Assembly: GCA_043823745.1 (NCBI GenBank)
Contig: JBDRAN010000016.1
Location: forward strand, 1,243 to 65,242
From: Candidatus Omnitrophota bacterium
GTDB taxonomy: Bacteria; Omnitrophota; Gorgyraeia; Duberdicusellales; 4484-171
Length of the DNA stretch: 64,000 nt
Direction of reading: 5' to 3'
Both the position numbers and the translations under genes were made by a program. The notes beneath the pieces were generated by a model. That model ran no database searches, had not been told where the DNA came from, and saw only the letters and a list, made by a program, of their open reading frames with translations. Shown piece by piece: positions 19,613-63,205 of this stretch; position 1 is the stretch's first letter; each line of letters begins with the position of its first letter.

Positions 19613-19632
19613 AGAAATTAAAATAGTTTATT

Positions 19633-19742
19633 GAGTTCATAGAGTTTATAGAGTTCATAGGGTTATGAAGAACGCAACGAACTCAAGCAACTCAAAGAAC
19701 TCAAAGAACTCAAAGAACTCAAGCAACTCAACGAACTCAAAT
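19633..19742. repeat. heptamer microsatellite tract (gagttcatag / tttatag then aactcaa[a/g][g/c] x8)
   Basis: Directly visible tandem iteration between hdrC stop and hdrB start. The two halves are reverse-complementary families (ttgagtt vs aactcaa). Confidence 0.8.
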
Positions 19743-20618
19743 ATGAAATACGCCTATTATCCCGGGTGCTCGTTGCATTCAACTGCCAGAGAGTATGATA
19801 TGTCTGCCCGGGCGGTTGCTGAGGCTCTCGGAATAGAACTTTTGGAAATTCCTGATTGGATATGTTGTGGTGCCACTCCCGCGCACATCACGATGCATCT
19901 TTTGTCGATCGCTCTTCCGGTAAAGAATCTCCTAAAGGCAAAAGCTATGGGTTCTTATGAAGTAGCGACTTGCTGCGCTGCCTGTTTTAGCCGTTTGAAG
20001 ATTGCCAATGAATTTATGGAAAATAATCCTGAGCATCGTAAAAAAGTAAATGAGATAGTGGGCGAAGAATATAGGGGAGAGGTTAAGGTACGGCATTTTC
20101 TAGATATAATCGTCAATGAATTTGGATTAAAGAATCTCGAGCAGAAGGTAGTAGATAAGTTAAGCGGATTAAAAGTAGCCTGTTATTACGGTTGCCTTTT
20201 AACCCGTCCGCATGAAGTTACTCAGTTTGATGATCTGGAGGCTCCGCATTCGATGGATGATTTGATGAAAACAATCGGGGTAGAGCCTGTTTCCTGGCCG
20301 TATAAGACCGAATGCTGCGGAGCAAGTTTTTCCCTTACCCGGACCGATATTGTACTTAAGCTCTCGGGCGATATTTTGCAGATGGCGGCCGATGAAGGCG
20401 CAGAAGCTATTGTGGTAGCTTGCCCCTTGTGCCAATCAAATCTGGATTTAAGGCAAGCGGCGATTAATAAGAAGTTTAAGAAGAATTTTCAGATGCCGAT
20501 TTTTTATTTTACCCAATTAGTAGGCTTGAGTTTAGGGATCGATCCTAAAAAATTGGGGTTCAGTAGGCATATTGTTAATCCTATGCCGTTGTTGAGAGAA
20601 AAAATAATAAGTTATTGA
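19743..20618 (+). CDS. hdrB: heterodisulfide reductase subunit B-like protein (CCG domains)
   Basis: Starts MKYAYYPGCS as in HdrB. Two cysteine-rich CCG domains (WICCGATP…CAACF and CYYGCLL…ECCGASF…CPLCQ). The ORF-track start 19665 runs through an upstream microsatellite and is not preferred. Confidence 0.75.
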   Translation: MKYAYYPGCSLHSTAREYDMSARAVAEALGIELLEIPDWICCGATPAHITMHLLSIALPVKNLLKAKAMGSYEVATCCAACFSRLKIANEFMENNPEHRKKVNEIVGEEYRGEVKVRHFLDIIVNEFGLKNLEQKVVDKLSGLKVACYYGCLLTRPHEVTQFDDLEAPHSMDDLMKTIGVEPVSWPYKTECCGASFSLTRTDIVLKLSGDILQMAADEGAEAIVVACPLCQSNLDLRQAAINKKFKKNFQMPIFYFTQLVGLSLGIDPKKLGFSRHIVNPMPLLREKIISY

Positions 20619-20748
20619 GTTATAGGGTTATTGGGTTATAGAGTTAAACCCAAGTAACCCAAGTAACCCAAGTAACTCAAGTAACTCAAGTAACTCAACG
20701 AACCCAATAACTCAATAGACTCAAGTAACCCAAGTAACCCAAGTAACT
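20613..20748. repeat. microsatellite tract (gttatag / ttgggtt then caagtaac[c/t] x10) filling the hdrB-hdrA junction
   Basis: Visible tandem 9-mer cccaagtaa / ctcaagtaa repeats. Begins at the hdrB stop codon and ends at the hdrA ATG. Confidence 0.8.
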
Positions 20749-22773
20749 ATGAAGATAGGCGTATTCATTTGTCATTGCGGTACTAATATCTCCGCAACCG
20801 TGGATGTGGAAAAGGTTGCGCAGGCATTATCCCTCTTTCCAAAAGTTAAATTCTCCACCACCTACAAATATATGTGCTCTGATCCCGGGCAAGGCCTCCT
20901 TCGGCAGTCGATTAAAGAGCACAAATTAGATCGCATTGTTATCTCTTCTTGCAGTCCGCGTCTGCATGAGAAGACTTTTAAGAAGTGCGTTGAGGATGCC
21001 GGAATAAATCCTTACTTAGTGGAAATGGCTAATATTCGCGAACACTGTTCCTGGGTGCATCGTGACAGGGAACAAGCGACTAAAAAGGCAATAGAAATTA
21101 CAAGGATGGCCGTGGCTAAAGTTTCGCGCGACAAGCCTTTGCAGAAGACGTATACATCCATCGAAAAGAAGGTTTTGATTATTGGCGCAGGTATATCCGG
21201 TATACAGTCGGCCATTGATATTTCTTTTGCCCGTTATCCGGTAACTATGATTGAGAAGGAGCCGACCATCGGAGGCAGGATGGCCCGTTTTGATAAGACC
21301 TTTCCTACTCTTGATTGTGCAGCTTGCATTTTGACTCCTAAAATGGTTACCGTGGCTCAGAGTGAATATGTTACTATTCATACTTATTCTGAAGTAGAAG
21401 AGGTTAGCGGCCATATCGGTAATTTTAAAGTTAAATATAGAAAGAAGGCGCGTTCCGTTGATTTACATAAATGCACCGGTTGCGGCGCTTGTTGGAATAA
21501 ATGTCCGGTGAAAGTTGACTCTGAGTTTGATTTGGGTCTAGGAAAAAGGAAAGCAATATACGTACCATTTGCGCAGGCTGTTCCTAATGTCCCGGTGATT
21601 GATAGAAAGAATTGCCTTTGGTTTACCCCGTTAGAGAAAGCCCCGGACAAAGCCGGTGAAAAAAGTTCTCTAACGGGGTTTACGCAGAAGAAATGCGGCC
21701 TGTGTAAAAAAATCTGTTCCTTCGGGGCTATTGATTATGATATGCAGGATGAAATTATTGAAGAAAAATTCGGCGCCATAATTGTCGCTACCGGCTTTGA
21801 GCAATTTGACCATGCGGTTTACGGCGAATACGGCTACGGAAAGTTTAAAGATGTGATTACAGGCTTACATTTTGAACGTATGGCGAATTCTTCCGGGCCG
21901 ACGGAAGGTAAGATTGTCCGGCCTTCAGACGGGAAAGAAGCGCAGGATGTCGTATTTATTCAGTGTGTGGGCTCGCGCGATGAACAGAAAGGCGTGCCCT
22001 ATTGTTCGCGTCTCTGTTGTATGTACACCGCAAAACACGCGCTTTTACTTAAAGAGCATAATAAAGATTCACAGGCCTATGTTTTTTATATTGACATTAG
22101 AGCCGCAGGTAAGAATTATGAGGAGTTTTTAAAAAGAGTCCAGACTGATTATGGTGCGGTTTATTTAAGGGGAAGGGTTTCGCGCATTTTTGAAAAGGGC
22201 GGTAAACTTATTGTCAGGGGCGCTGACACTTTAAGCGGCGGGCAGGTAGAAATAAAGGCAGATTTGGTGGTTTTGGCTACGGGCTTGATTGCCCAGCCGG
22301 ACGCGGTAAAACTTGCTCAGATGCTGCATATCCCGTATGACCAGAATAATTTTTTTACCGAAGCACACCCTAAACTTGCGCCGGTTGAAACCATAACCAG
22401 TGGAATTTATCTTACGGGTGCTTGTCAGTCACCCAAGGATATACCGGATACGGTGGCCACTGCTTCCGCTGCTTCAGTGAAGGCTTTGGGGCTGATGGTA
22501 CAGGATACATTAGAAAGAGAGCCTATCGTGGCTAAGGTTAATCCTGATGCATGTTCCGGATGTCGTGCCTGCATCCAAGCTTGTCCATTTAGTGCTATAG
22601 AGGAAAATGAAATTGAAGATAGAAGACTTAAGCGCAAAAGAATCGTGGCTAAGGTCTTGGAAGGAGTTTGCACTGGCTGTGGCAACTGCACTGCGGTTTG
22701 CCGAATGGCGGCTATAGACTTGGAAGGTTTTACCAATAGGCAGGTTATGGAAGAAATTGAAAGTCTTAGTTGA
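20749..22773 (+). CDS. hdrA: heterodisulfide reductase subunit A-like FAD/Fe-S protein
   Basis: N-terminal Cys cluster (MKIGVFICHCGTNIS). FAD-binding VLIIGAGISGIQSA. Ferredoxin motifs CTGCGACWNKCP, CSGCRACIQACP and CTGCGNCTAVC. C-terminal Cys-rich inserted-ferredoxin arrangement. 674 aa. Confidence 0.8.
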   Translation: MKIGVFICHCGTNISATVDVEKVAQALSLFPKVKFSTTYKYMCSDPGQGLLRQSIKEHKLDRIVISSCSPRLHEKTFKKCVEDAGINPYLVEMANIREHCSWVHRDREQATKKAIEITRMAVAKVSRDKPLQKTYTSIEKKVLIIGAGISGIQSAIDISFARYPVTMIEKEPTIGGRMARFDKTFPTLDCAACILTPKMVTVAQSEYVTIHTYSEVEEVSGHIGNFKVKYRKKARSVDLHKCTGCGACWNKCPVKVDSEFDLGLGKRKAIYVPFAQAVPNVPVIDRKNCLWFTPLEKAPDKAGEKSSLTGFTQKKCGLCKKICSFGAIDYDMQDEIIEEKFGAIIVATGFEQFDHAVYGEYGYGKFKDVITGLHFERMANSSGPTEGKIVRPSDGKEAQDVVFIQCVGSRDEQKGVPYCSRLCCMYTAKHALLLKEHNKDSQAYVFYIDIRAAGKNYEEFLKRVQTDYGAVYLRGRVSRIFEKGGKLIVRGADTLSGGQVEIKADLVVLATGLIAQPDAVKLAQMLHIPYDQNNFFTEAHPKLAPVETITSGIYLTGACQSPKDIPDTVATASAASVKALGLMVQDTLEREPIVAKVNPDACSGCRACIQACPFSAIEENEIEDRRLKRKRIVAKVLEGVCTGCGNCTAVCRMAAIDLEGFTNRQVMEEIESLS

Positions 22774-22826
22774 TGGTTTATAGTCTATAGTTTATAGCTA
22801 TAAACCATACACCATAAACTATAAAC
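22774..22826. repeat. self-complementary tttatag/ctataaac repeat hairpin at hdrA-4HB junction
   Basis: gtttatagtctatagtttatagctataaaccatacaccataaactataaac; the left half is the reverse complement of the right half. Confidence 0.75.
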
Positions 22827-22847
22827 TTGAGGAGCGAAGCGACGAAT

Positions 22848-23202: not shown

Positions 23203-23667
23203 GTGCAGAGCGAATTTAGCCATAAACCATCAACCATCAACCATCAACCAGAAGATTGGGAGCCTAAAATAGTCGGATTCTTATGTAATTGGTGCAGTTA
23301 CGCCGGAGCGGATTTAGCCGGGACTTCACGTATGGAATATCCTCACAATATCAAAATTATCAGGGTTCCCTGCTCCGGAAGAGTGAACCCGCTTTTTGTG
23401 CTTAAGTGCCTCATGAACGGCGCGGATGGAGTATTGGTTTCCGGCTGTCATATTGGTGATTGTCATTATTCAGAAGGCAATTTCTACGCGCGTAGGCGTT
23501 TTGCCGTATTGCAGAAGCTTCTTGAGTACGCGGGGATTGACCCGAGGAGATTTCAGATGTCCTGGGTTTCTGCGTCAGAAGGACAAAAGTGGGCCACGTT
23601 GGTCAAGGGATTAGTGGAGGAGATTAAGCAGGCAGGGCCTAATAAGTTGATAGTTGATAGTGTATAG
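23203..23667 (+). CDS. mvhD: MvhD/FlxD-like hydrogenase delta-subunit-type [2Fe-2S] protein
   Basis: KIVGFLCNWCSYAGADLAG … RVPCSGRVNPLFVLKCLMNGADGVLVSGCHIGDCHY matches the methyl-viologen-reducing hydrogenase delta subunit domain. The GTG start is uncertain because the N-terminal 15 codons run through a ccatcaa microsatellite. Confidence 0.7.
   Translation: MQSEFSHKPSTINHQPEDWEPKIVGFLCNWCSYAGADLAGTSRMEYPHNIKIIRVPCSGRVNPLFVLKCLMNGADGVLVSGCHIGDCHYSEGNFYARRRFAVLQKLLEYAGIDPRRFQMSWVSASEGQKWATLVKGLVEEIKQAGPNKLIVDSV
23216..23250. repeat. ccatcaa / ataaacc heptamer repeat at 5' end of mvhD ORF
   Basis: cataaaccatcaaccatcaaccatcaacca, read in frame as KPSTINHQP. Confidence 0.7.
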
Positions 23668-23706
23668 TTGATGGCTATAAACCATCAACCATAAACCATA
23701 AACGAA
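23660..23706. repeat. ataaacc/ccatcaa repeat hairpin at mvhD-frhB-like junction
   Basis: gtatagttgatggctataaaccatcaaccataaaccataaacg; ttgatgg pairs with ccatcaa. Confidence 0.7.
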
Positions 23707-24588
23707 ATGATTGAAGAAGTAAAGAATAAGGCAAAGGAATTATTAAGAACCAAACAAGTTGATTTGATTATTGGTTATAAAAGAGCATCTGACGGAGTAT
23801 TTGCAATACCTTGTTTTATCTATAAGGAAAAGGAGGCAGATGTCTTAATCTGGGATGCCTATTGCGTGTATAACCTCGCTAATTATTTGAAGGATTTTCC
23901 CGGCAACAAGGTAGGGATAATAGCCAAGGATTGCGATATTAAATCGATTATCGTCCTGTTGCAGGAGAATCAGCTGAAACGGGAAGATGTCTTTATTATT
24001 GGTATCGAATGTATGGGGGTAGTTAATGAGAAGAAGCTGGACAGGCGGAACACAGATGCCGAAGAAATAGGTTACCATGAGAAATGCCGTGCTTGTAAAC
24101 CGGCGATACCGGTTTTTTGTGATGTAGTGATAGCTGGAGAAAAGAAAGAACCAGCTCATCATGCACAGGAGGATGCATACGTCTCGGTGCGTACATTCGA
24201 AGCAAAATCACTCAAAGAAAGATTTAAATTCTGGGAGGAAGAGTTTAAAAGATGTATCCGCTGTTATGCCTGCAGGCAAGTTTGTCCGATGTGTTACTGT
24301 CCGCGCTGTGTGGCGGATCAATCCATGCCGGCATGGTTCTCCAGGGCAACGGATTACAAGGGAAATTTGTCTTGGAACCTTACGCGCGCGATTCATTTGG
24401 CAGGAAGGTGCATTGATTGCGGCGAATGTGAAAGAGTCTGCCCAGTCGGCATTCCTTTGCGGGATATCAATAAAAAGCTGGAGAAAGACGTACAGGAGAT
24501 GTTTAAGTACACGGCAGGGACAAGTATTGAACAGAAACCTCTTCTTGCCGGTTTTGATAAAAATGATCCGGATGAATTCATTAAATGA
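23707..24588 (+). CDS. FrhB/FdhB/FlxC-like iron-sulfur flavoprotein subunit (4Fe-4S dicluster)
   Basis: C-terminal CIRCYACRQVCPMCYC … CIDCGECERVCP ferredoxin-like clusters. N-terminal half resembles the F420-hydrogenase beta-subunit fold. Assignment is by family resemblance only. Confidence 0.5.
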   Translation: MIEEVKNKAKELLRTKQVDLIIGYKRASDGVFAIPCFIYKEKEADVLIWDAYCVYNLANYLKDFPGNKVGIIAKDCDIKSIIVLLQENQLKREDVFIIGIECMGVVNEKKLDRRNTDAEEIGYHEKCRACKPAIPVFCDVVIAGEKKEPAHHAQEDAYVSVRTFEAKSLKERFKFWEEEFKRCIRCYACRQVCPMCYCPRCVADQSMPAWFSRATDYKGNLSWNLTRAIHLAGRCIDCGECERVCPVGIPLRDINKKLEKDVQEMFKYTAGTSIEQKPLLAGFDKNDPDEFIK

Positions 24589-24790
24589 GGCCACAACTTA
24601 CGGAGCCGCCGCTTCAGAAGCAGGCGAACGTAAGTTGTTTGGTCGAATTTATCCCGAGCTTACGCAGAAAATTTCAAAGAAATTTTCAAGTGTTTAAGCG
24701 AGGGGTAGTTGTGGAAGGTGCTAATCCACAAGGGATAGGCCTTCCTGATACCATTAAAGGAAGGGCTTAATCCACCGACTTTAGTCGGTT

Positions 24791-25796: not shown

Positions 25797-25878
25797 CGAT
25801 GTAGTTTATGGTTTATGGCAGTAATCTTCTCCCAAGCTATAAACCATACACCATCAACTATCAACTAAATTGTAAACT
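25797..25878. repeat. tttatgg/ccataaac repeat hairpin at asrA-like / asrB-like junction
   Basis: gtagtttatggtttatgg … ctataaaccatacaccatcaactatcaact; the two arms are complementary. Confidence 0.7.
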
Positions 25879-26760
25879 ATGCAAAATATTTATTTGCCTC
25901 ATTTAGCTGAAATAATTGATATCAAGCAGGAAACCCCTGATGTAAAGACGTTTAAACTGCACTTTACGGACGAGGCTGTAGCAAAGACATTCGATTATAA
26001 GCCCGGCCAATTCGTAGAATTATCGGTTTTCGGAGAAGGAGAAGCAACATTCTGTATTTCTAACTCTCCTACGCGGGGGATTCTTACCAAATCAACCAAC
26101 TCAACGAACTCAAGTAACTCAACGAACTTTATAAACTCTATAGAATGCAGCGTTAAACGTATGGGGAAGGTTACTCAGGCCCTCCACGAACTAGACGTTG
26201 GGGATATGGTTGGTATTCGGGGTCCCTACGGTAATGGTTTCCCGGTTGCAGACTTAAAGGGTAAAAACCTCGTGTTTGTTGCCGGCGGTATCGGGCTTGC
26301 GCCCCTGCGTTCTTTGATTAATTATGTCCTGGATAAGCGCAGCGATTTTAAGACCATTACCATTGTTAACGGCGCCAAGACCTCCAGGGACTTAGTCTAT
26401 CAAGATGAGTATGAAACGTGGAAGAAAGGAAAAGATACCTTCTTGCATTTAACCGTTGATTGTAATGAAGAAAATTGGACGTGCATGGTGGGGGTAGTGC
26501 CGAAGATTTTAGAAGAAATTAAACCGACGTGTAACGGCAGTGTGGCTATCGTATGCGGCCCCCCGGTCATGATTAAATTTACCATGCCTGTTCTTTTGAA
26601 GCTGGGGTTTTGCCCTGAGGCCATAATTACGACACTAGAAATGAGGATGAAATGTGGTTTGGGTAAATGCGGTAGATGCAATATTGGCAATCTCTATGTT
26701 TGTAAGGATGGCCCGGTTTTTACGTATCAACAGTTAGAGAGCCTCAACTTCGAGTATTAA
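25879..26760 (+). CDS. AsrB/HydG/PyrK-like FAD/NAD(P)-binding [2Fe-2S] oxidoreductase subunit
   Basis: Ferredoxin-reductase-type FAD-binding beta-barrel (KPGQFVELSVFGEGEATFCIS). NAD-binding LVFVAGGIGLAPLRS. C-terminal 2Fe-2S C-x-C-x2-C…C (CGLGKCGRCNIGNLYVC). Carries a roughly 20-aa in-frame STNS-rich insert encoded by an aactcaa microsatellite. Confidence 0.65.
   Translation: MQNIYLPHLAEIIDIKQETPDVKTFKLHFTDEAVAKTFDYKPGQFVELSVFGEGEATFCISNSPTRGILTKSTNSTNSSNSTNFINSIECSVKRMGKVTQALHELDVGDMVGIRGPYGNGFPVADLKGKNLVFVAGGIGLAPLRSLINYVLDKRSDFKTITIVNGAKTSRDLVYQDEYETWKKGKDTFLHLTVDCNEENWTCMVGVVPKILEEIKPTCNGSVAIVCGPPVMIKFTMPVLLKLGFCPEAIITTLEMRMKCGLGKCGRCNIGNLYVCKDGPVFTYQQLESLNFEY
26088..26150. repeat. in-frame aactcaa microsatellite inside the asrB-like CDS
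   Basis: accaaatcaaccaactcaacgaactcaagtaactcaacgaactttataaactctatag encodes TKSTNSTNSSNSTNFINS. Confidence 0.75.
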
Positions 26761-35369: not shown

Positions 35370-35521
35370 GCTATCGGGATCTCTTCACAGACGGCTTTAT
35401 GCCGTAGATATATATACATACTATAATTTACTCCTTGCGTGGACAAGGTGAAATTTTCTAGCGATGATTTCACCGTAAGCTTCGGAGTTAAATTAGCTTC
35501 GTAAATTTAAGGAGGTGCGTG

Positions 35522-41368: not shown

Positions 41369-43036
41369 TTGTCCGTTCTTCTTCCGTTGCTAATTATTGA
41401 GAAGATGAATATTTTAAAAACTGTAGGCACTCGGGGCATAAAAAAAATTTACACCTCGCCGGTAATCCCTATTTTTATATTCTGCGCTGCAATTGTGTAC
41501 TTTTTTCACTTCGATATCTTTTTGAGCAGTGATTCTGCGTGGAGTGGAATTGCCTCAATGCAACTTCTGCGAAGGGGGTTGCAGTACCTGCCGTATCTTG
41601 ATGCGTGGGGGCTTTCGTATTTATTCGGGTATTATCTGATCCAGTATTTTCTTTTAAATTTATTACAGCAGGGTTTATCTTCCAATTTAATGGAAGCATT
41701 AAACCTTATCACGGGAGCAGTTTCGGTGTGCAATGTAACTCTGATTTATGTTATGTTTCGTAAGATCTCTTTTAACAAAATGCTTTCTTCATGTATGGCA
41801 ATATTCTACTTTTTCATCCCCATGGTATTTCAATTATCGTTGTATACAAATCCGAACACATATTCGCTTTTTTTCTTTATTTCATCGAATATTTTTTTCA
41901 TATCGTACTTGTTGGATTCAAAAAAAACCAATCTTGTTCTATTGTTATTCTTTTCGGTTCTTTCTTTGCTGGTTAGGGTCGATACGATTTTATCTTATTG
42001 TTCTTTTCTGTCATGGGCTTTAGTGCTTAATAAGTCATTTAAAAGAGCATTATTTGTCTGTTTTTTTACGATGTTTGTGTCATTCATTATTTTTGTAATA
42101 ATTCAGAAGTTATTGCTTGGTCAAGGCATATTGGATGGAAGAGCATTTACAGGTTTCTCGTCTCTCGATTACGATTTCTTTAACGTTCGCTCGATGGTCG
42201 TAGCAATCGGACACATTTTCTTTTCAGCGGGAATAGGTTTGGTTTGTATAAGCCTTTTTTTTATTGCTCGCTGTCTGTACCTACGTGATTTTAAAATACC
42301 GCTTGCAACGCTAATCTGGATATTCCCTGTATTGGTTTATATAACAATTATGGCTAAATATCATGTTAGCAGGTACTGCGTGATTTCATTTATTGGATTT
42401 TTATTGCCGGTTGGGTTTATCGCGCGGAGCTTTTGCGGAAGCAAAAAGAAACGGATCGTGATCTTTTTTATTATGATCGGCATTATTGTTTTTGGAAGCA
42501 TGCCGTTGTCATATTTTCTTGTGAAGACTCATTATCCGTTGAGGAAGCATTATAAACCAGGAGAAAGAATCGTTGTTGAATACACTCCCTTAGGTAATAT
42601 ATTTACCAATGCTTACAGTCTGCGAGAGGAGAAGCGTCGTGCATGGTATACTGCCGAACAAGTAATCAGAAAATATAATAAAGTTATTGTGGTGGCTGAT
42701 AATACCTGTATATTGCCTTATATTTATTTTTTGTATTATTTATTTGAAAATGTTGGACAAGAAGAAGTCACGGTGCATACTCGTAGATATACGGCTTTTA
42801 ACAGGGAACTTATTTTTATAGATATAGGTTTGGAGCGTGATAGAACAATAGCGCCACGGTATGATCGAAAAATTGTATTGGATTGTTTGAATAACCCTCT
42901 CTACGATCAATTTGTGTTGCTCGTACCACCGTACATCTGCGAGAGGGATCGACAATTGTGTGACGAGATGGAAAAGAAATGTTCACAAGAAAAAAGAATT
43001 TTGGTTAAAGTTAATGACCCTCATCAAGCGCAATGA
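41369..43036 (+). CDS. large polytopic membrane protein, possibly an ArnT/PMT-like (GT-C fold) glycosyltransferase
   Basis: 555 aa with at least 10 hydrophobic segments and a very AT-rich, Phe/Ile-rich composition unlike neighbouring genes. Family assignment is by architecture only. Confidence 0.3.
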   Translation: MSVLLPLLIIEKMNILKTVGTRGIKKIYTSPVIPIFIFCAAIVYFFHFDIFLSSDSAWSGIASMQLLRRGLQYLPYLDAWGLSYLFGYYLIQYFLLNLLQQGLSSNLMEALNLITGAVSVCNVTLIYVMFRKISFNKMLSSCMAIFYFFIPMVFQLSLYTNPNTYSLFFFISSNIFFISYLLDSKKTNLVLLLFFSVLSLLVRVDTILSYCSFLSWALVLNKSFKRALFVCFFTMFVSFIIFVIIQKLLLGQGILDGRAFTGFSSLDYDFFNVRSMVVAIGHIFFSAGIGLVCISLFFIARCLYLRDFKIPLATLIWIFPVLVYITIMAKYHVSRYCVISFIGFLLPVGFIARSFCGSKKKRIVIFFIMIGIIVFGSMPLSYFLVKTHYPLRKHYKPGERIVVEYTPLGNIFTNAYSLREEKRRAWYTAEQVIRKYNKVIVVADNTCILPYIYFLYYLFENVGQEEVTVHTRRYTAFNRELIFIDIGLERDRTIAPRYDRKIVLDCLNNPLYDQFVLLVPPYICERDRQLCDEMEKKCSQEKRILVKVNDPHQAQ

Positions 43037-43206
43037 TAAAATATCACGTTTATGGGTCATAGCTTATGCGGCGTATACATAATTTGCAGTGGAGATGGGA
43101 GAGCCGGTTAGATTATGCGTATTAAGCTTTAATTGCCACACGCGACAGAATTGATGCGTTGATCATTGGGATACTTTTCATATATTTGCGTTATGGAGGT
43201 TGCAGC

Positions 43207-43300
43207 TTGACATGTGCGTCGAGATATGGTATATAGATAACAACAATGAAGTTACAATGAAGGCAATGAAGCCTCAATGTGTTTAGCATTGAGGCTTTTT
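43207..43300 (+). ncRNA. candidate small RNA with its own promoter and terminator; three CAAUGAAG motifs
   Basis: TTGACA (43207..43212), a 17-nt spacer, then TATATA (43230..43235). About 50 nt later comes an intrinsic terminator gcctcaatg-tgtttag-cattgaggc followed by ttttt (43271..43300). The transcribed portion reads aacaaCAATGAAGttaCAATGAAGgCAATGAAGcctcaatg…. Confidence 0.35.
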
Positions 43301-43316
43301 AGTTTATAGGTGCAAT

Positions 43317-43362
43317 GAAGCCCTTTTGTAAGCAGAGTTTTGCTTATGGAAGGGCTTTTTTT
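43317..43362 (+). terminator. second intrinsic terminator
   Basis: gaagccctt … aagggcttc stem enclosing an inner hairpin, followed by ttttttt. Confidence 0.5.
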
Positions 43363-43700
43363 AATGAGCAGATGCTTTTCTGTTTCTTCGAAACAGAAAA
43401 GCATAGTCCCGCGACAAGCGGGGCGTCTGCGAATTAACTCGACGAGCTTCGGTAAATTTTCAGAGAAAATTTACCCGATATACAGGCGAGTCGAAGACGA
43501 GGAGTAACCGTGAGTTTTGAAGAGTTGTTAATGAGCAGATACTTTTCTGTTTCTTCGAAAACAGAAAAATATAGTCCCGCGATAAGCGGGGCGTCTGCGA
43601 ATTAGTTCGACGAGCTTCGGTAAATTTTCAGAGAAAATTTACTCGATATCCAGGCGAGTCGAAGTCAAGGGGTAACCATGAGCTTTGAAGAGTTATTAAC
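43363..43700 (+). repeat. 167-bp tandem direct duplication (2 copies) of the sigma-factor leader plus first 8 codons
   Basis: Copy 1 is 43363..43529 and copy 2 is 43530..43700, at over 90% identity. Each copy contains three perfect or near-perfect hairpins: cttttctgtttc-ttcgaa-gaaacagaaaag, cccgc-gacaa-gcggg, and ggtaaatttt-cagag-aaaatttacc. Copy 2 ends in ATGAGCTTTGAAGAGTTATTAAC (the sigma gene start). Copy 1 ends in the same sequence with a GTG start. Confidence 0.85.
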
Positions 43701-44196
43701 CAGGATTAAGCCAAAACTACGGGGCATTGCCGTTAAGCTTGATGGCCGGTATACGTCTTTTAATGATGATGACCTTTGTCAGGAGGCGCTGTGTGTTCTT
43801 TGGGAAAAGTATCAGAGAGGCGAACTTTCCAATAAGACCGATAGTTATATTCTGCAGGGTTGTCTTTTCTTTCTGAAGAACTACATTCGCAAGGCATACA
43901 CCAGAATCGATTCGCTTTCAATGAGTCTTGAAAAAACGGTTAATGAAAACGAGGATACGCTCGAAGATTTTGTTCCGGCAGAGGAATCGTGCCCGCAGGT
44001 GCGACGCAGCGGGTATCTTGAGCGTGATATTCGAGCCTATTTGGATGAACGGGAAGCAGTAGTGCTTGCGTTGTATATTCGAGATTTTACCACTCGTGAG
44101 ATCGGTTGCCGGCTTGGCATTTCTCACGTCATGGTGGTTAAGATTATTGCTCGAATTAAGGTAAAATGTTCCGCGCTTAAGGAAGAAATTATGTAG
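43678..44196 (+). CDS. small sigma-70-family RNA polymerase sigma factor (ECF-like, regions 2 and 4)
   Basis: C-terminal region-4 HTH (FTTREIGCRLGISHVMVVKIIARIK) and an N-terminal region-2-like segment. 172 aa. Confidence 0.5.
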   Translation: MSFEELLTRIKPKLRGIAVKLDGRYTSFNDDDLCQEALCVLWEKYQRGELSNKTDSYILQGCLFFLKNYIRKAYTRIDSLSMSLEKTVNENEDTLEDFVPAEESCPQVRRSGYLERDIRAYLDEREAVVLALYIRDFTTREIGCRLGISHVMVVKIIARIKVKCSALKEEIM

Positions 44197-44265
44197 ATAG
44201 TGGTTACCAAGAATTCTTTAAAGTTACTTGTATCATTGTAAAACACAGTGTTGTGTATAAAACAA

Positions 44266-44300
44266 AGCCGTTCTCGATGAAAGAACGGCTTCTCTAATTT
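44266..44300 (+). terminator. probable intrinsic terminator after the sigma-factor gene
   Basis: agccgttct-cgatgaa-agaacggct stem-loop followed by a T-rich tract (tctctaatttt). Confidence 0.45.
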
Positions 44301-44367
44301 TAGACAGCGGCGTCTTTATATCCAGAGGTGGATACCGAGACGCCGTCTTAATTTGTGAGGAGTACTA

Positions 44368-44687
44368 TGAAAAAAGTCGAATGTATTATTCGTCCCGAGT
44401 ATTTAAAAAATCTTACAGATGAGTTGCTTTTAGCCGGTATCGGCGGTATGACCGCCAGCGAGGTTAAAGGATTTGGCAGAGAAGTCACAAGGCCAGAGAA
44501 CTACTTGTTTTTACCCAAGACAAAGATTGAACTCTATATCACTGATGATCAGGTCCAGAGTATAGTTGCTGTTATTAGGCGTTGTTGTAATGACGGTAAG
44601 CTTGGTAGCGGGAAGATCGCTATTATTCCGCTTGAGGGTTGCGTGAGGGTTAGGACTGGAGAAAAAGAAGAAGCAGCTTTATTGTAA
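44368..44687 (+). CDS. nitrogen regulatory protein P-II (GlnB/GlnK family), copy 1
   Basis: MKKVECIIRPE… with T-loop region and C-terminal …GDGKIAIIPLEGCVRVRTGE. RBS gaggag. About 106 aa. Confidence 0.8.
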
Positions 44688-44698
44688 AAAAAGGAGGA

Positions 44699-45490
44699 GT
44701 GATGAGGGTGCGTAAAAAAGTTTTGTTGGCTTGTGTGATGACCTTAATGGGTGGTATGTCATTGTCTGATTATTCATACTCTACGCCTTCGACGCACATC
44801 TGGGCACCATCAACGGATGTCCAGAAGTATGGCGTTATGCATGTAACGAGTGATGCCTACTTTGCATCGGAGCGGGATTCTCTCGGTAACAGGCCCGATA
44901 CTGTTACTAATGTGGGCTTAACAACCGGGGTTTTACCGTTTGAAAGGTTTAATATGGAACTGGGTTTTGACCATAAAAGCGGTTTGGGAGACCTTGACGA
45001 TTACCCCATGTATTTTAATGTAAAGCTCGGGGTTCCTGAAGATTCTTTTTGTAAATTCTTTCCTGCGCTTGCAGTTGGAATCTATGATGTGGGTACCGAG
45101 CGCAATAAGACGAATAATGATGTTTTCTATGGCAAGGTGGCTAAAACGATCTCTATAAACGATTTTTCTTTGGGCAAACTCTCGGCGGGTTATTTCAGAG
45201 GAAATTCAAAGTTACTTTTAAATGGTAACGGGGAAAAAGATAATGATGGGGTATTTGCCGCATGGGAAAGGAATATTCCCGAGATATCTGATCGGTTCTG
45301 GATTTGCGTAGAGTATATGGGTTCAGAAAGTTCCTATGGCGCCTGGAGCTATGGTTTTGCCTGGAAGTTTTCGGATAATGTTTCAGCGCTCCTCGGGTAT
45401 AGTCGCTACAACAATTCCAATCTCGCTGATACGGTTACGCTGCAGGTAGATATTGATTTTGATTTGTTTAGCAAAATCTTTAAGAAATAG
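44699..45490 (+). CDS. hypothetical secreted / outer-membrane-like protein between P-II genes
   Basis: Signal-peptide-like N-terminus (KKVLLACVMTLMGGMSLS). Gly/Tyr/Ser-rich beta-strand-like composition. No family recognised. Confidence 0.35.
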   Translation: MMRVRKKVLLACVMTLMGGMSLSDYSYSTPSTHIWAPSTDVQKYGVMHVTSDAYFASERDSLGNRPDTVTNVGLTTGVLPFERFNMELGFDHKSGLGDLDDYPMYFNVKLGVPEDSFCKFFPALAVGIYDVGTERNKTNNDVFYGKVAKTISINDFSLGKLSAGYFRGNSKLLLNGNGEKDNDGVFAAWERNIPEISDRFWICVEYMGSESSYGAWSYGFAWKFSDNVSALLGYSRYNNSNLADTVTLQVDIDFDLFSKIFKK

Positions 45491-45500
45491 GGAGGCTCGT

Positions 45501-45851
45501 ATGAAAAAAATTGAAGCTATTATCCGTTCAGAAAAAGTTGGCCAGATACGCCAAGCTCTTGAGAAAACAAACTGTACGGGGCTAACCTTGATTCAGGTAG
45601 GCGGGCAGGGGTGTCAAAAAGGTATGGTTCAAAAATGGAAAAATTACGAATACAAAGTTGGTATTTTGCCAAAAACAAAAATAGAAATTGTTGTGGATGA
45701 CGATAGCGTGAAAACCATTGTTGCGGTAATTTGTGAAGCTGCAAAGACCGGTGAATGCGGTGACGGAAAGATATTCATTTATCCGGTAGAAGAAGCGATA
45801 CGGGTACGCACCGGAGAAACCGGACTCGCGGTGCTTTCGTCTGATAAGTGA
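45501..45851 (+). CDS. nitrogen regulatory protein P-II, copy 2
   Basis: MKKIEAIIRSEKV…GDGKIFIYPVEEAIRVRTGE. RBS gggagg. The track ORF start 45453 is not preferred. Confidence 0.8.
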   Translation: MKKIEAIIRSEKVGQIRQALEKTNCTGLTLIQVGGQGCQKGMVQKWKNYEYKVGILPKTKIEIVVDDDSVKTIVAVICEAAKTGECGDGKIFIYPVEEAIRVRTGETGLAVLSSDK

Positions 45852-45939
45852 GCCAGGAGCATGCATGCAAAGAAAATTACATATTTTATTGTTTGGGTTT
45901 ACTCGGTTCGATAAACAAACCAATTAAAAGGAGGGTTAC

Positions 45940-47256
45940 ATGAAAAGATTTTTCCTTGTAGTGTTGGCACTGGGTGCGCTGCTGTGTAGCGTGGGTGCGC
46001 CGGTATTTGCGCAGGAGGCTGCGGCCGTGATTGATACCGGCGATACGGCTTGGATCTTGATTTGTTCGGCGCTTGTTCTCCTAATGACTCCGGCGCTGGC
46101 ATTTTTCTATGGTGGTATGGTCAGAAAGAAAAATATGCTGAGTGTTCTGATGCAATGTTTCATTATTATGGGTGTGTTGAGTATTCAGTGGGTACTCATC
46201 GGTTATAGCTTATCTTTTGCTCCCAGTAATGGCTTTTGGGGAGGATTAAAGTGGTTTGGTTTAAACGGAGTAGGACTTACCCCGTATGCGGATTACGCGG
46301 GAACCATTCCACACCAGGCGTTTATGATCTTTCAGGGAATGTTTGCCATTATTACGCCGGCACTTATTATTGGTGCGTTTGCCGAGCGCATGAAGTTTTC
46401 GGCATTCCTGATATTTACGGTCTTATGGGCGACTTTTGTGTACAATCCGTTGTGCCATTGGGTTTGGGGTATCGGCGGCTGGCTGAGGAATTTAGGTGCG
46501 CTTGATTTTGCCGGCGGGACGGTGGTGCATATTAATGCGGGTATTGCCGCCCTGGTTACCGCGTTAGTTATCGGGAGGCGTAAGAATCTTGATACCAATA
46601 CTCCAACGCCGCACAATATTCCCTTTGTCGTGCTGGGTACGGGTCTTTTGTGGTTTGGCTGGTTTGGTTTCAATGCCGGCAGCGCTCTCGGTGCCAACGG
46701 TATTGCGGTGAACGCGTTTGTAGTGACGAACACCGCCGCGGCTGCCGCAGCATTAAGTTGGGCATTCTTAGAGTGGATTCGTAACGGCAAACCGACGATG
46801 TTTGGTGTTGCCTCCGGTGCGGTTGCCGGACTTGTTGCTATCACTCCTGCAGCAGGATTTGTGAGTGTGATCCCGGCTATTGTGATAGGATTATTGGTAA
46901 GCGTTTTTTGTTTTATCGCCGTAAGCATCATAAAACCAAAACTTGGGTACGATGATTCGCTCGATGCGTTCGGTGTCCATTGCGTAGGTGGAATCTGGGG
47001 CGCGCTGGCTACCGGTTTATTTGCCTCCAAGCTCGTCAATCCGGCTGGCGCTGATGGTTTGTTTTTCGGAAACCCTAAACTGTTCCTGATCCAGCTTCTT
47101 ACGGTAGTGATTACTATCGTGTACACCTTTATTGTTACCTTTGCGATCTACAAGTTAATCGACATCTTTATGGGTGTCCGCGTCGGCGAGAAAGATGAGC
47201 TTATAGGCCTCGATCTTACGCAGCACCGGGAGAGGGCGTATACCGTTTTAGAGTAG
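45940..47256 (+). CDS. amt: ammonium transporter (Amt family) with signal peptide
   Basis: Signal peptide, 11 TM helices, and the Amt signature region (…DFAGGTVVHINAGIAALV…). Confidence 0.85.
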   Translation: MKRFFLVVLALGALLCSVGAPVFAQEAAAVIDTGDTAWILICSALVLLMTPALAFFYGGMVRKKNMLSVLMQCFIIMGVLSIQWVLIGYSLSFAPSNGFWGGLKWFGLNGVGLTPYADYAGTIPHQAFMIFQGMFAIITPALIIGAFAERMKFSAFLIFTVLWATFVYNPLCHWVWGIGGWLRNLGALDFAGGTVVHINAGIAALVTALVIGRRKNLDTNTPTPHNIPFVVLGTGLLWFGWFGFNAGSALGANGIAVNAFVVTNTAAAAAALSWAFLEWIRNGKPTMFGVASGAVAGLVAITPAAGFVSVIPAIVIGLLVSVFCFIAVSIIKPKLGYDDSLDAFGVHCVGGIWGALATGLFASKLVNPAGADGLFFGNPKLFLIQLLTVVITIVYTFIVTFAIYKLIDIFMGVRVGEKDELIGLDLTQHRERAYTVLE

Positions 47257-47316: not shown

Positions 47317-47386
47317 GGACGAGGGATGAAGGACGAGGGATGATGGACGAGGGACGAAGGACGCAATACTCAATACTCAATACTTT
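47317..47386. repeat. short tandem repeats (ggacgagggatga x3-4 then caatact x3) in the amt-glnK spacer
   Basis: Directly visible: ggacgagggatgaaggacgagggatgatggacgagggacgaaggacg caatactcaatactcaatact. Confidence 0.75.
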
Positions 47387-47413: not shown

Positions 47414-47755
47414 ATGAAACTTATCATTGCTATCATCCAGCCGTACAAATTAGAAGAGGTAAAAGAAGAATTGTATAAATCAGAAGTCAATCTTGTTACG
47501 GTCAATGAAGTTCTTGGTCATGGCCGCCAGAAAGGAGTAACCGAAGTCTATCGCGGTGCCAAGGAGACAGGAAATCTTTTGCGTAAGATTCGCCTTGAGA
47601 TCGCGGTAAACGATAATTTTGTCGAACCAACCGTCAAGGCAATCGTTAAAGGGGCAAAAACAGGGGAGACTGGAGACGGCAAGATCTTCATCCTCGATCT
47701 TAAAGAATGCGTGCGTATCCGCACCGAGGAGCGCGGGTCCGCGGCGATTGGGTAA
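47414..47755 (+). CDS. glnK: nitrogen regulatory protein P-II (GlnK-like), copy 3
   Basis: MKLIIAIIQPYKLEEVKEEL…RGAKE(T-loop)…GDGKIFILDLKECVRIRTEE. 113 aa. Confidence 0.85.
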   Translation: MKLIIAIIQPYKLEEVKEELYKSEVNLVTVNEVLGHGRQKGVTEVYRGAKETGNLLRKIRLEIAVNDNFVEPTVKAIVKGAKTGETGDGKIFILDLKECVRIRTEERGSAAIG

Positions 47756-47817
47756 ATAATCTTGTTCTTTTAAAACTCTTCGCGTGTAGTACAATATTTA
47801 TGAGAGTCGTGTAATCT

Positions 47818-48215
47818 GCGGCACCCGGCTTAATTGGAATAGCCGGTACGCACTTTCTGTGCGGCACCCGGCTGAATCGCACCCGGCGCTTAATATACCT
47901 GGCGCTAAACGGTATGGCGCCAGTATTGCCCTTCTGGGCAAGAATTGCGCCGGTAGCGCACAAAGCGCATACTCGTCCTTCCTTTGAGGCGAGGTATGTA
48001 TGCTTGTGCGTTAGAATAGCCGGTACGCACTTTTTGTGCAGCACCCGGCTTAATCGGTATAGCCGGCACCTTGCCTTTAGTGCACCCGGCATAATCGGAT
48101 ACGCCGGTGTACGCTTTTGCGTTAGATCGGCAAGTGCAGCTTTTCTGGCTAGTGCGCAATTTCTGTGCAGCATCCGGCTTATTTGGAATAGCCGATGCGC
48201 ACTTTCTGTGCAGGG
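47818..48215. repeat. tandem array (about 5 units, several degenerate or interrupted) of a roughly 43-bp double-hairpin element, REP/BIME-like
   Basis: Unit GCACCCGGCTTAATYGGWATAGCCGGTRCGCACTTTYTGTGCR recurs head-to-tail at about 47821, 47864 (split by a roughly 120-bp insertion), 48041, 48086 and 48169. Each unit contains CCGGCT…AGCCGG and GCAC…GTGC inverted repeats. Confidence 0.6.
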
Positions 48216-48225
48216 AGGATTGTGC

Positions 48226-48675
48226 ATGATTGTGGATCGTTTGGAGAACGCGGAGATGTATCTTGGTCTCCATCCTGCTTTTGAAAAAGCCTTTGAGTTT
48301 CTGCGCCGCGCCGGCCTCAGCGCTTATGCTGACGGTCGCTATGAAATAGAAGACGGGCGTATATTTGTTCTTGTTTCATCGAATGAGCCTAAAGGAAAGG
48401 GTAAAGTGTTGCTTGAGGCGCATCGGAAGTACCTTGATATCCAGGTCTCTCTGGATACCCTCGATTGTATCGGGTATAAGCCTTTAAGCGATTGTAGGCA
48501 TTGCGCTCAGGGGTATGATGCGGCGCGGGATTGTGAGTTTTTCTCCGATGCGGTGGTATCATGGTTTGAGCTTGATCGAGGATCCTTTGCTGTCTTTTTT
48601 CCTTCTGATGCCCACGCGCCCCTGGCAGGCGTTGTGCCCGTGCGAAAGGCAGTCATAAAGGTTCCGGTATGGTAG
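48226..48675 (+). CDS. YhcH/YjgK/YiaL-family protein (DUF386, TabA-like)
   Basis: MIVDRLENAEMYLGLHPAFEKAFEFL… typical N-terminus of this family. 150 aa. RBS gggagga. The track ORF start 47914 runs through the repeat array and is rejected. Confidence 0.6.
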   Translation: MIVDRLENAEMYLGLHPAFEKAFEFLRRAGLSAYADGRYEIEDGRIFVLVSSNEPKGKGKVLLEAHRKYLDIQVSLDTLDCIGYKPLSDCRHCAQGYDAARDCEFFSDAVVSWFELDRGSFAVFFPSDAHAPLAGVVPVRKAVIKVPVW

Positions 48676-57472: not shown

Positions 57473-57600
57473 GACTGTCCCGTTTCCTATAATATTATAA
57501 TAAGGTGCGGGACGCCCCGAACCTTGATAAGCAAATAAAGAAAACGGGTGCTGTCCCGTTTCCTATAATAGTTTATTAAGGTGCGGGACGCCCCGAATCC
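57473..57600. repeat. two copies of a roughly 55-bp direct repeat, each with a GTCCCG…CGGGAC inverted repeat, in the gltB-gltD spacer
   Basis: ctgtcccgtttcctataatattataataaggtgcgggacgccccgaa at 57473..57527, again at 57552..57600 (about 90% identical). Preceded by the palindrome ctggtagctaccag, (cagctnt)n repeats and the inverted repeat cagctatcag / ctgatagctg. Confidence 0.8.
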
Positions 57601-62777: not shown

Positions 62778-62984
62778 GAAGAATCTTTGCCTTTTTGAAG
62801 CGTTTTTTGATATAATCGGAAAATAATCAAGATAGCAATAATCTTTTGTGCTATGTGGCTCTCATCGCCGCGTCTATATACTCAAAGAATTCCTTCGGCA
62901 TTCTTTGAGAACGCGTCGATATCAGTGAATCTAAGTTTTTTGTACGCTTGCGAACGCAAACTTCAAAAAACTAAGAGTCACTAA

Positions 62985-63205
62985 ATTTTCTGAGAATGTG
63001 TTGAGATAACCAACCCTAAGACTTTTGTTCGCTGAGGCTCCAAAAGCCTAAGGGTTGGTAATCAGTTGTTCTTTCAAGAATTAGTTTATCCCTCAACACA
63101 TCTGAATACTCATAAAATTTATACTAAATTTTATGAGAATGTGTTGAGATAACCAACTCTAAGATTTTTGTTCGCTAAAGCTCCAAAAACCTAAGAGTTG
63201 GTAAG
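62985..63205. repeat. two roughly 78-bp direct repeats immediately upstream of tRNA-Ser(TGA)
   Basis: ttttctgagaatgtgttgagataaccaaccctaagacttttgttcgctgaggctccaaaagcctaagggttggtaa at 62985..63062, again at 63128..63205 (about 90% identical). Each carries an accaaccct…agggttggt inverted repeat. Confidence 0.8.

Follow-up and report, generated by a model that had tools for sequence, protein, structure and literature searches.

A tandem duplication of a dispersed structured element before an ECF-like sigma factor gene of a Candidatus Omnitrophota bacterium

The window analysed here is a 64,000-nt stretch of contig JBDRAN010000016.1 from a Candidatus Omnitrophota bacterium (GenBank assembly GCA_043823745.1), read on the forward strand, and positions without a locus name refer to it. 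Around 43.4 kb it holds, on the + strand, a gene for a 172-aa sigma factor (Shine-Dalgarno (SD) sequence AAGGGG at 43667–43672, ATG at 43678, stop at 44196), two tandem copies of a strongly folded element immediately before it and, further upstream, a candidate promoter followed by two predicted intrinsic terminators; the sigma gene heads a P-II/ammonium transporter (Amt) nitrogen cluster at 44367–47256. The product of this sigma open reading frame (ORF) matched NCBIfam TIGR02937 over residues 2–164 at 45.1 bits, against a cut-off of 42.9, and is 100% identical to a protein classed by NCBI as sigma-70 family, from a Candidatus Omnitrophota metagenome-assembled genome. Region 4 gave weak Pfam matches below the cut-off in the 172-aa protein itself, and homologues carry Pfam domains for both region 2 and region 4. 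With its 172-aa size, the TIGR02937 match above the cut-off and the domains of its homologues, the gene is assigned by prediction to the extracytoplasmic function (ECF, group IV) sigma-70 factors, which have regions 2 and 4 only in ~170–200 aa, and from which it differs in that no adjacent anti-sigma gene was seen here. The ECF-like sigma family is greatly expanded in Omnitrophota, with 519 matches at E ≤ 1e-3, and the ANTAR-type leader described below occurs in the closest clade only.

The duplicated unit in the sigma leader

Tandem Repeats Finder reported a single long-period array in the window, at 43361–43699, with a period of 168, 2.0 copies, 91% matches and a score of 571. The head-to-tail, near-identical duplication that an earlier note on this DNA had described from its letters is thereby confirmed, with a period of 168 rather than 167 bp. 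Tandem Repeats Finder, pairwise alignment and the boundary strings place the + strand units at 43363–43530 and 43531–43698; they differ by 14 substitutions and one 1-nt indel, a divergence of ~9%, and the longest run identical between them is 36 nt. The ORF list and the alignment also agree with the described ends of the copies. Copy 2 closes with AAGGGG-N5-ATG and the codons MSFEELLT of the sigma ORF, and copy 1 with GAGGAG-N5-GTG and MSFEELL, which run into a 31-codon dead-end ORF (43510–43605).

Metagenome assemblies are prone to mis-joining repeats, and one Logan contig (L002, run SRR10598176) breaks inside the repeat region, beginning at position 43613. A falsely expanded repeat is nonetheless extremely improbable: the copies differ at 15 positions and so cannot be one locus read twice, and their 9% divergence excludes a collapsed or expanded repeat, the artefact that the earlier note had named in the conditions that would refute its reading. 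The NCBI contig JAHJZK010000384.1 (L001, GCA_018827245.1), far shorter at 2131 bp than the window's source contig, covers 43135–45265, both copies included, with 0 mismatches. The first 30 nt of the Logan contig are present in both copies and its first 31-mer is unique to copy 2, which, taking k = 31 for Logan as we assume, is the graph branch point expected if the reads contain both copies. Both assemblies spanning the site show two copies, and the tandem duplication is real, without assembly artefact. Contingency repeats have identical or near-identical units and copy-number polymorphism; here, 168-bp units diverged by 9%, with no identical run above 36 nt and two copies in either assembly, lend no support to the dosage or phase-variable control that had been suggested.

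Both copies are predicted to fold strongly, copy 1 at −62.2 kcal/mol (z = −6.2) and copy 2 at −55.9 kcal/mol (z = −4.8), with 0 of 200 shuffles as good. The three hairpins previously noted in each copy are all present; they do not stand in a simple row but are arranged in two domains, and the first stem, described as 11–12 bp, is 15–16 bp long in copy 1 and ~10 bp in copy 2. In domain 1, the outer stem P0 (UUAAU/AUUAA) is followed inwards by a tandem G.A loop and then by P1 (GCAGAU/GUCUGC), a closing stem inside which hairpins 1 and 2 form a three-way junction. Domain 2, or P2, has a lower stem CGAC/GUCG, a tandem G.A loop, a short GC(U)/(G)GC stem, a 3′-side bulge of 6–7 nt reading UAUACAG or UAUCCAG (UAUNCAG; in copy 1 the 6-nt UAUACA(G)), and at its tip hairpin 3, GGUAAAUUUU/AAAAUUUACC. 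A covariance model of domain 2 built from 11 sequences, here called R1, whose E-values are rough, scored copy 1 at 73.1 bits and copy 2 at 70.8 bits. With the fold, and for copy 1 also a regular-expression match, this puts element copy 1 at 43361–43495 (P0–P1 43361–43437, P2 43438–43495) and copy 2 at 43528–43663 (P0–P1 43528–43605, P2 43606–43663), both on the + strand.

When the whole leader was folded, both copies formed independently, the sigma SD and AUG were ~0.5 unpaired in the ensemble, and sequestration of the SD by the element was not seen. A terminator scan found no + strand terminator within 43363–43677, which together with the half-open SD and AUG leaves the unit without an expression platform, and a consensus scan found no + strand promoter of the unit's own inside it. 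A kink-turn is defined by a 3-nt bulge; this candidate was rejected for the element, as the P0/P1 junction and the P2 loop here are symmetric 2 × 2 tandem G.A loops, other members have 3 × 2 GAA/RA loops, and no 3-nt bulge is present.

The edges of the units suggest how the duplication arose. With a slash at the breakpoint, the left edge reads GGGCTTTTTTTAA/TGAGCAG (TTTTTAA/TGAG), the junction GAAGAGTTGTTAA/TGAGCAG (TTGTTAA/TGAG) and the right edge GAAGAGTTATTAA/CCAGGAT (TTATTAA/CCAG), so that the breakpoints fall in TTNTTAA microhomologies. Slippage or illegitimate recombination would have joined two of these, one at the start of the element just after the terminator U-run and the other, by chance, in sigma codons 7–9, and it is because the right-hand microhomology sits in these codons that the sigma SD and eight codons were copied. 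That each unit carries an SD and a start-codon copy argues for an accidental segmental duplication, unlike tandem riboswitches. Since relatives start ATG-AGC (L003) or ATG-AAT (L004), the ancestral start is the one in unit 2, and drift has affected unit 1 (ATG to GTG, AGC to AGT, TTA to TTG). The duplication is lineage-specific and fairly old, an ordinary microhomology-mediated event of little consequence.

The relic start in unit 1 (SD GAGGAG at 43499–43504, GTG at 43510, + strand, from the ORF list and the alignment) opens the 31-codon upstream ORF (uORF), MSFEELLMSRYFSVSSKTEKYSPAISGASAN, whose stop at 43605 lies in GAAUUAG of copy 2. With its good SD, this start may be translated, in which case translating ribosomes would open P0–P1 of copy 2 and terminate 72 nt short of the sigma ATG. 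The copies differ within the folded part by a G-C to A-U double change, an A-U to G.U change, a mismatch turned into a pair, three loop or bulge changes with a loop indel, and a single disrupting change, a set compatible with both copies still folding, with numbers too small for a test.

The element family and its contexts

On its sequence and predicted fold, each unit represents a single copy of a two-domain structured element that is dispersed through intergenic DNA and common in Omnitrophota, with the layout UUAAU-GA-(variable P1)-GA-AUUAA followed by the bulged hairpin P2. The structure of this element is under selection. In an alignment of P2 from 11 sequences, 90.7% of cells are standard pairs and 8 of 21 pairs have changed on both sides, a result matched by 0 of 500 shuffles, and partners slid out of register were only 23–53% paired. 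RNAalifold, run on 12 full elements, recovered P2 independently, with compensatory changes in 7 of its 13 pairs. MAFFT was unable to align the variable P1 across members, so its pairing was counted by a script anchored on the flanking motifs: on average 3.79 of 4 positions of the closing stem are paired, versus 2.29 when the halves of different elements are combined, and the same positions hold CG, GC, AU and UA alike. P0 hardly varies, with the copies at 24.6 kb and 35.4 kb of the window as exceptions. The covariation analysis proposed in the earlier note bore out a conserved structure, through the compensatory changes of a single-copy homologue (L004) and through covariation across the family.

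Outside the tandem pair, R1 matched the window at 24645–24708 (+), 35428–35494 (−), 63089–63155 (−) and 62861–62923 (−), and in all the 64 kb hold at least seven units on both strands: two at 43.4 kb, one at 24.6 kb, one at 35.4 kb and about three at 62.9–63.2 kb. The member at 24581–24706 (+; R1 23.4 bits) lies between two co-directional genes identified by Pfam as encoding Fe-S proteins, and shows the complete UUAAAUGAG-P1-GAAUUUA-P2 arrangement, its P0 having changed in a compensatory way to UAAAU/AUUUA. A reduced member at 35428–35510 (−; R1 21.4 bits), with the P0 UUAAAUU/AAUUUAA, abuts the reversed SD of a + strand tatA-like gene (ATG 35522), the neighbours being TatA_B_E and then TatC by Pfam. 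The array of about three units at 62861–63204 (−; R1 30.5 and 25.8 bits) lies between a deaminase gene and a tRNA-Ser gene (63205), antisense upstream of the latter, and contains a second tandem duplication (repeat family D6) with a 143-bp period and 91% identity between 62980–63061 and 63123–63204. Only such tandem pairs are similar, at 91%; the other copies in the window share just the scaffold (21–30 bits, versus 71–73 for the pair before the sigma gene), and the high similarity among one genome's copies that marks recent spread is not found within the 64 kb.

Beyond the window, R1 matched L011, L013 and L054 and second copies in L010 and L090, about 21 P0–P1 modules were found in the 507 kb scanned with the anchor TTAATGAG...GAATTAA, and of six loci drawn from metagenome contigs by the domain-2 pattern only one is a sigma leader. 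The element lies antisense to a class IV aminotransferase gene (ilvE-like; L086, L088), YajC (L091), AmtB (L013), an HTH-glutamine synthetase gene (L011), an acyl carrier protein gene (L090) and, in the window, TatA–TatC, and is antisense to eight of its neighbouring genes overall; at protein genes, the antisense copies abut the reversed SD, with CCTCC running directly into TTAATGAG. Co-directional copies are those of the sigma leaders, the Fe-S gene pair at 24.6 kb and L089, and those after the sigma terminator in L010, L012 and L054. These contexts at unrelated genes, in either orientation, are at odds with a regulator of one gene class. An association with nitrogen genes specifically (amtB, glnA, P-II and aminotransferase neighbours) was considered and dropped, given that most such loci had been fetched through the sigma gene; copies found independently of it sit at yajC, tatA, acyl carrier protein, tRNA and Fe-S genes.

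The builds of the element are modular. P0–P1 occurs without P2 in L030, between a terminator and an SD, and with a mini P2 in L012 and L014, besides the full element and the tandem arrays of the window and L014. Multiple intergenic copies in both orientations and modular sub-units in variable number are the marks of an interspersed repeat. Terminal inverted repeats or a consistent target-site duplication were not recognised by eye, the ends sharing only TTAAT (P0), and many but not all copies are flanked by TTA...TA. Depending on the copy, the element is preceded by a terminator, a stop codon or a reversed SD, and no promoter of its own is apparent, which leaves an independent small-RNA gene unsupported. 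A further candidate, in which the conserved motifs would be −35 and −10 boxes of an ECF promoter, was rejected on their spacing, which varies from 8 to ~100 nt.

The Rfam search of the unit that the earlier note had proposed was run with Rfam 15 and returned no family for the element: only tRNAs reached the gathering score in the window, nothing relevant appeared at E ≤ 10 in 43000–44400, and no relevant family appeared at E ≤ 0.1 on four other element loci. Viral contigs held no copies, and nhmmer with a three-sequence profile recovered close relatives only. Thus absent from Rfam, the element is an interspersed structured intergenic repeat of Omnitrophota with a conservation unusually deep for this kind.

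Before the sigma gene itself, presence is patchy. Among ~13 sigma orthologues, the leader element is complete in 4–5, partial in 3 and absent in 6, so that the leader described earlier does recur upstream of orthologous genes and is missing from about half of them. It stands as a single copy in the leaders of L004 (64% protein identity; compensatory changes), L009, L010 and L087, and is absent from or replaced in those of L003, L007, L008, L011, L013, L017 and L018. Downstream of the second of the two terminators described below, L003 (76% identity) has a different leader, L007, L008, L011, L013 and L017 have other sequences, and in L018 terminator 2 leads directly to the SD; L012 carries a reduced element between the two terminators, and the L014 leader three copies of a P1-type module. 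Constant position and orientation at one gene class, as of a gene-specific leader, are thus not what the element displays, with 4–5 of ~13 leaders and unrelated genes among its sites. The stretch from terminator 2 to the SD is hypervariable, the repeats accumulated there differing from lineage to lineage. In L011 (2200–2480) and L013 (1–165), this space is filled by another repeat, of GTTACGAA/GTAAC units. A direct duplication of CCCGCCTTGATGAGCCGTAAGGC... was also observed in L008 (~2170–2290), with a stem-GAGC-loop-GCGAG-stem motif as in P2 of the element.

Upstream terminators and the reading of the leader

The conserved feature specific to the sigma gene appears to be the stretch 43207–43362, just outside the region on which the earlier note had focused, with a promoter, hexaloop mini-hairpins and two terminators, all on the + strand. 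By reading of the sequence, the putative sigma-70-type promoter (43207–43235) has TTGACA at 43207–43212, a 17-nt spacer ending in TATGG and TATATA at 43230–43235, and transcription would start at ~43241. The consensus scan did not list this promoter because its rule needs a T at position 6 of the −10 box. The same arrangement, TTGACA-N17-TAtAaA with TG upstream of the −10 box, is found in L003, L004, L007–L012, L017 and L018. Two candidate mini-hairpins follow, AAC-AAUGAA-GUU at 43242–43253 and GGC-AAUGAA-GCC at 43262–43273, each a hexaloop on a 3-bp stem, the loop having A as its first and G as its fourth nucleotide (A1/G4); the pair AAC-AAYGAN-GUU / GGC-AAYGAN-GCC occurs in the closest orthologues only (L006–L018). 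The terminator scan placed intrinsic terminator 1 at 43268–43300, with 13 pairs (stem 43268–43298) and a T-rich tail as U-run, and its 5′ arm (GAAGCCUCAAUG) includes GCC 43271–43273, the 3′ arm of the second mini-hairpin. A third mini-hairpin, GC-AAUGAA-GC at 43312–43321, overlaps terminator 2 (43312–43362 together), which has a 19-pair stem at 43317–43358 followed by a U-run. GGC-AAYGAA-GCC and terminator 2 are kept in L003, L004, L007, L008, L010, L011 and L014.

ANTAR recognition elements consist of two small hexaloop hairpins with A1/G4, the second of which is mutually exclusive with a terminator (PMC3369931). Dual hexaloops, A1/G4 and exclusivity between hairpin 2 and terminator 1 are all present at 43242–43300, and none of this belongs to the duplicated unit. 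In L009, L012 and L018 the leader is immediately preceded by a gene with GAF and ANTAR domains (Pfam; ANTAR at 70–77 bits), and an ANTAR-like motif ends the upstream gene in six close loci (L009–L012, L017, L018). The stretch 43242–43362 resembles the ANTAR-target leaders of EutV, NasR and AmiR, and those of nitrogen control by GnfK/GnfR and NasT, in its dual A1/G4 hexaloops with an overlapping terminator, in the GAF-ANTAR genes that adjoin orthologous leaders and in its nitrogen-related downstream genes; ANTAR antitermination in a nitrogen cascade is known from Geobacter GnfK/GnfR (PMC2995071). It differs in its output, an ECF-like sigma factor gene, in having two terminators in series and in the sensor domain of the relatives, which is GAF and not a receiver; the window contains no ANTAR gene, and the duplicated element falls outside the ANTAR motif. 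Expression of the sigma gene most likely depends on these two switchable terminators of the ANTAR type. Transcripts begun at the conserved promoter would end at terminators 1 and 2, and a GAF-ANTAR protein on the hexaloop mini-hairpins would cause antitermination at both and allow sigma expression, from which we infer that antitermination at two serial terminators gates the gene. An RNA-level switch would then sit atop a sigma-factor cascade in an uncultured phylum, in a family that heads P-II/Amt clusters.

Taking these observations together, we propose, with a probability of about 0.6, that the leader carries a lineage-specific tandem duplication of a dispersed structured element and that control of the sigma gene would reside upstream, at the ANTAR-type terminators. 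The element would fill the space between these conditional terminators and the sigma ribosome-binding site as a generic folded module of the 5′ untranslated region, its second copy being neutral or nearly so, and any effect it has would concern the stability or processing of the mRNA or the binding of some factor. Tandem multiplication of modules recurs at 62.9–63.2 kb of the window and in the L014 leader. Several observations weigh against this proposal. On its regulatory side, tblastn found no GAF-ANTAR gene within the 64-kb window, and the second terminator here has one clear mini-hairpin only, with a 2-bp stem. On the side of a generic module, the given strand is the more stable of the two in 17 of 19 copies, antisense copies included (sum −112 kcal/mol), and the motifs UUAAUGAG and GAAUUAA are identical across distant genomes, which together point to a specific partner; G.A loops and G.U pairs account for part of the strand difference. 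In the folded part, most changes between the two copies leave the structure unaffected, so that both may still be under selection. In addition, the pattern and the model used to search for members both stem from this window, which makes the census biased and incomplete.

The asymmetry between strands is the main reason against dismissing the family as passive DNA, and it leads to the tentative idea, possible but on balance doubtful, that the element is a ligand, as RNA or single-stranded DNA, for a conserved protein, a phylum-wide Omnitrophota class in which one strand is selected whatever the direction of the gene. Tandem copies would then alter the number of binding sites at particular genes, and the still somewhat less probable extension to this locus is that the duplication doubles the sites in the sigma leader; such a protein could be a global RNA-binding regulator, a nuclease involved in processing or an HUH/RAYT-type enzyme that binds hairpins. 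The invariant unpaired or weakly paired motifs (UUAAU-GA...GA-AUUAA, the UAUNCAG bulge and AAAUUU of the distal stem) beside freely covarying stems fit such a ligand, as do the preferred strand, the mostly structure-neutral changes between the copies and, in two metagenomes (L086, L088), the element's retention before the ilvE-like gene at orthologous positions. Yet no candidate protein was identified, the purine-rich loops do not fit a kink-turn, the bulge sequence is lost in distant members (the 24.6-kb and 35.4-kb copies, L011 and L013), and neither a promoter nor a terminator of the element's own is apparent. That the repeat is instead selfish and mobile, a miniature inverted-repeat transposable element (MITE) or a REP- or BOX-like repeat free of host function whose tandem copy is a by-product of propagation, we consider unlikely. 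Its many intergenic copies in both orientations, its optional presence at orthologous sites and differing positions in leaders, its mosaic build with tandem arrays, the near-identical P2 cores on four contigs of one metagenome (L088–L091) and its resemblance to the pneumococcal BOX/RUP/SPRITE repeats (PMC3049150) speak for this explanation. The failure to recognise terminal inverted repeats or a consistent target duplication by eye, for which the MITE form was set aside, the absence of any sign of recent spread in the window, the lack of matches in viral contigs and motifs conserved across genomes whose sigma orthologues are only 50–60% identical speak against it, as does the failure of any transposase for the element to turn up, although no dedicated search for one was made.

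Like BOX/RUP/SPRITE, the E. coli repetitive extragenic palindromic (REP) sequences and bacterial interspersed mosaic elements (BIME), and the Neisseria Correia elements, the element is multi-copy, intergenic, found in either orientation and strongly folded, with modular tandem sub-units, presumed co-transcription with neighbours and optional presence at orthologous sites (PMC3049150). It differs from them in several respects: apart from the tandem pairs, the copies in the window have diverged strongly; conservation of the motifs extends over a phylum-level group instead of a single species; one strand is favoured; and inverted terminal repeats or target duplications were not seen. With tandem riboswitches or aptamers, such as glycine riboswitches, it shares two similar structured domains in series in one 5′ leader, but has no consistent gene association, expression platform or Rfam match. 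A cis-regulatory RNA specific to the sigma gene (a riboswitch, an attenuator, or an anti-sigma or small-RNA platform), with two copies for cooperative, dosage or phase-variable control, is very unlikely. The earlier note was right that the leader is highly structured; the element also lies in the 5′ leader directly before the SD, and three to four orthologous leaders keep it, with compensatory changes. Its absence from about half of the orthologous leaders, its different place in L012, its presence at unrelated genes, many of them in antisense, the unsequestered SD, the lack of a + strand terminator/anti-terminator alternative within the unit, the divergence between the copies, which sets them apart from a contingency repeat, and the empty Rfam search all count against a sigma-specific role, which the distribution of the element largely refutes; a sigma-specific anti-sigma or small-RNA platform in particular finds no support. 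Those who annotate 5′ leaders, riboswitches or small RNAs in Omnitrophota will keep meeting this element, and its copies should not be read as gene-specific regulators.

Neighbouring genes and other repeats in the window

The nitrogen cluster headed by the sigma gene comprises, on the + strand and by Pfam, a P-II gene (44367–44687), a 263-aa ORF without family match between the P-II genes, a second P-II gene (45498–45851) and an ammonium transporter gene (45940–47256). In L004 (GCA_028713415.1), the gene order, given as matching the window, is sigma, P-II, 261-aa ORF, Amt, P-II. Between the sigma and P-II genes, 44258–44350 contains a long GC-rich hairpin, GACAGCGGCGUCU...UAUCCAGAGGUGGAUA...AGACGCCGUC, and a similar GC-rich hairpin in L054 (~3240–3300) is followed by an element copy. 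Just 5′ of the hairpin in the window, at ~44258–44269, lies an AAC-AAAGCC-GUU hexaloop hairpin with A1 and G4, so that P-II may possibly be under ANTAR-type control too. A third P-II-like gene was noted at ~47415–47756, with 6.7 copies of the 7-nt repeat GGACGAG (47317–47363) between it and the ammonium transporter gene. On its other side, before the next ORF (ATG 48227), a noncoding stretch of ~440 nt (47780–48226) holds 4–5 copies of the hairpin module GCACCCGGCTTAATTGGAATAGCCGGTAC GCACTTTCTGTGC, which had no Rfam match at the gathering score.

Elsewhere in the window, direct-repeat arrays with units of 7–9 nt were observed at 19625–19741, 20610–20747, 22768–22839, 23219–23258, 23645–23716, 25836–25875 and 26071–26158, flanking several genes within a 7-kb stretch. 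Their units are AAGAACTCA, AACCCAAGT, CCATCAA/CCATAAAC and AGTTCATAG, and some arrays are reverse complements of others, such that pairing across genes is conceivable. Two 47-nt direct repeats at 57475–57597 (CTGTCCCGTTTCCTATAATA...AAGGTGCGGGACGCCCCGAA), 94% identical and 76 nt apart, lie upstream of an ORF starting at 57646, each with a TATAAT-like box inside a hairpin GTCCCG...CGGGAC. Finally, the 32 nt at 896–927, where neither ARAGORN nor Rfam called a tRNA, are 88% identical to 1240–1271, the 5′ half of a tRNA-Arg gene (1243–1318) ~340 nt downstream, and may represent a tRNA fragment or pseudogene.

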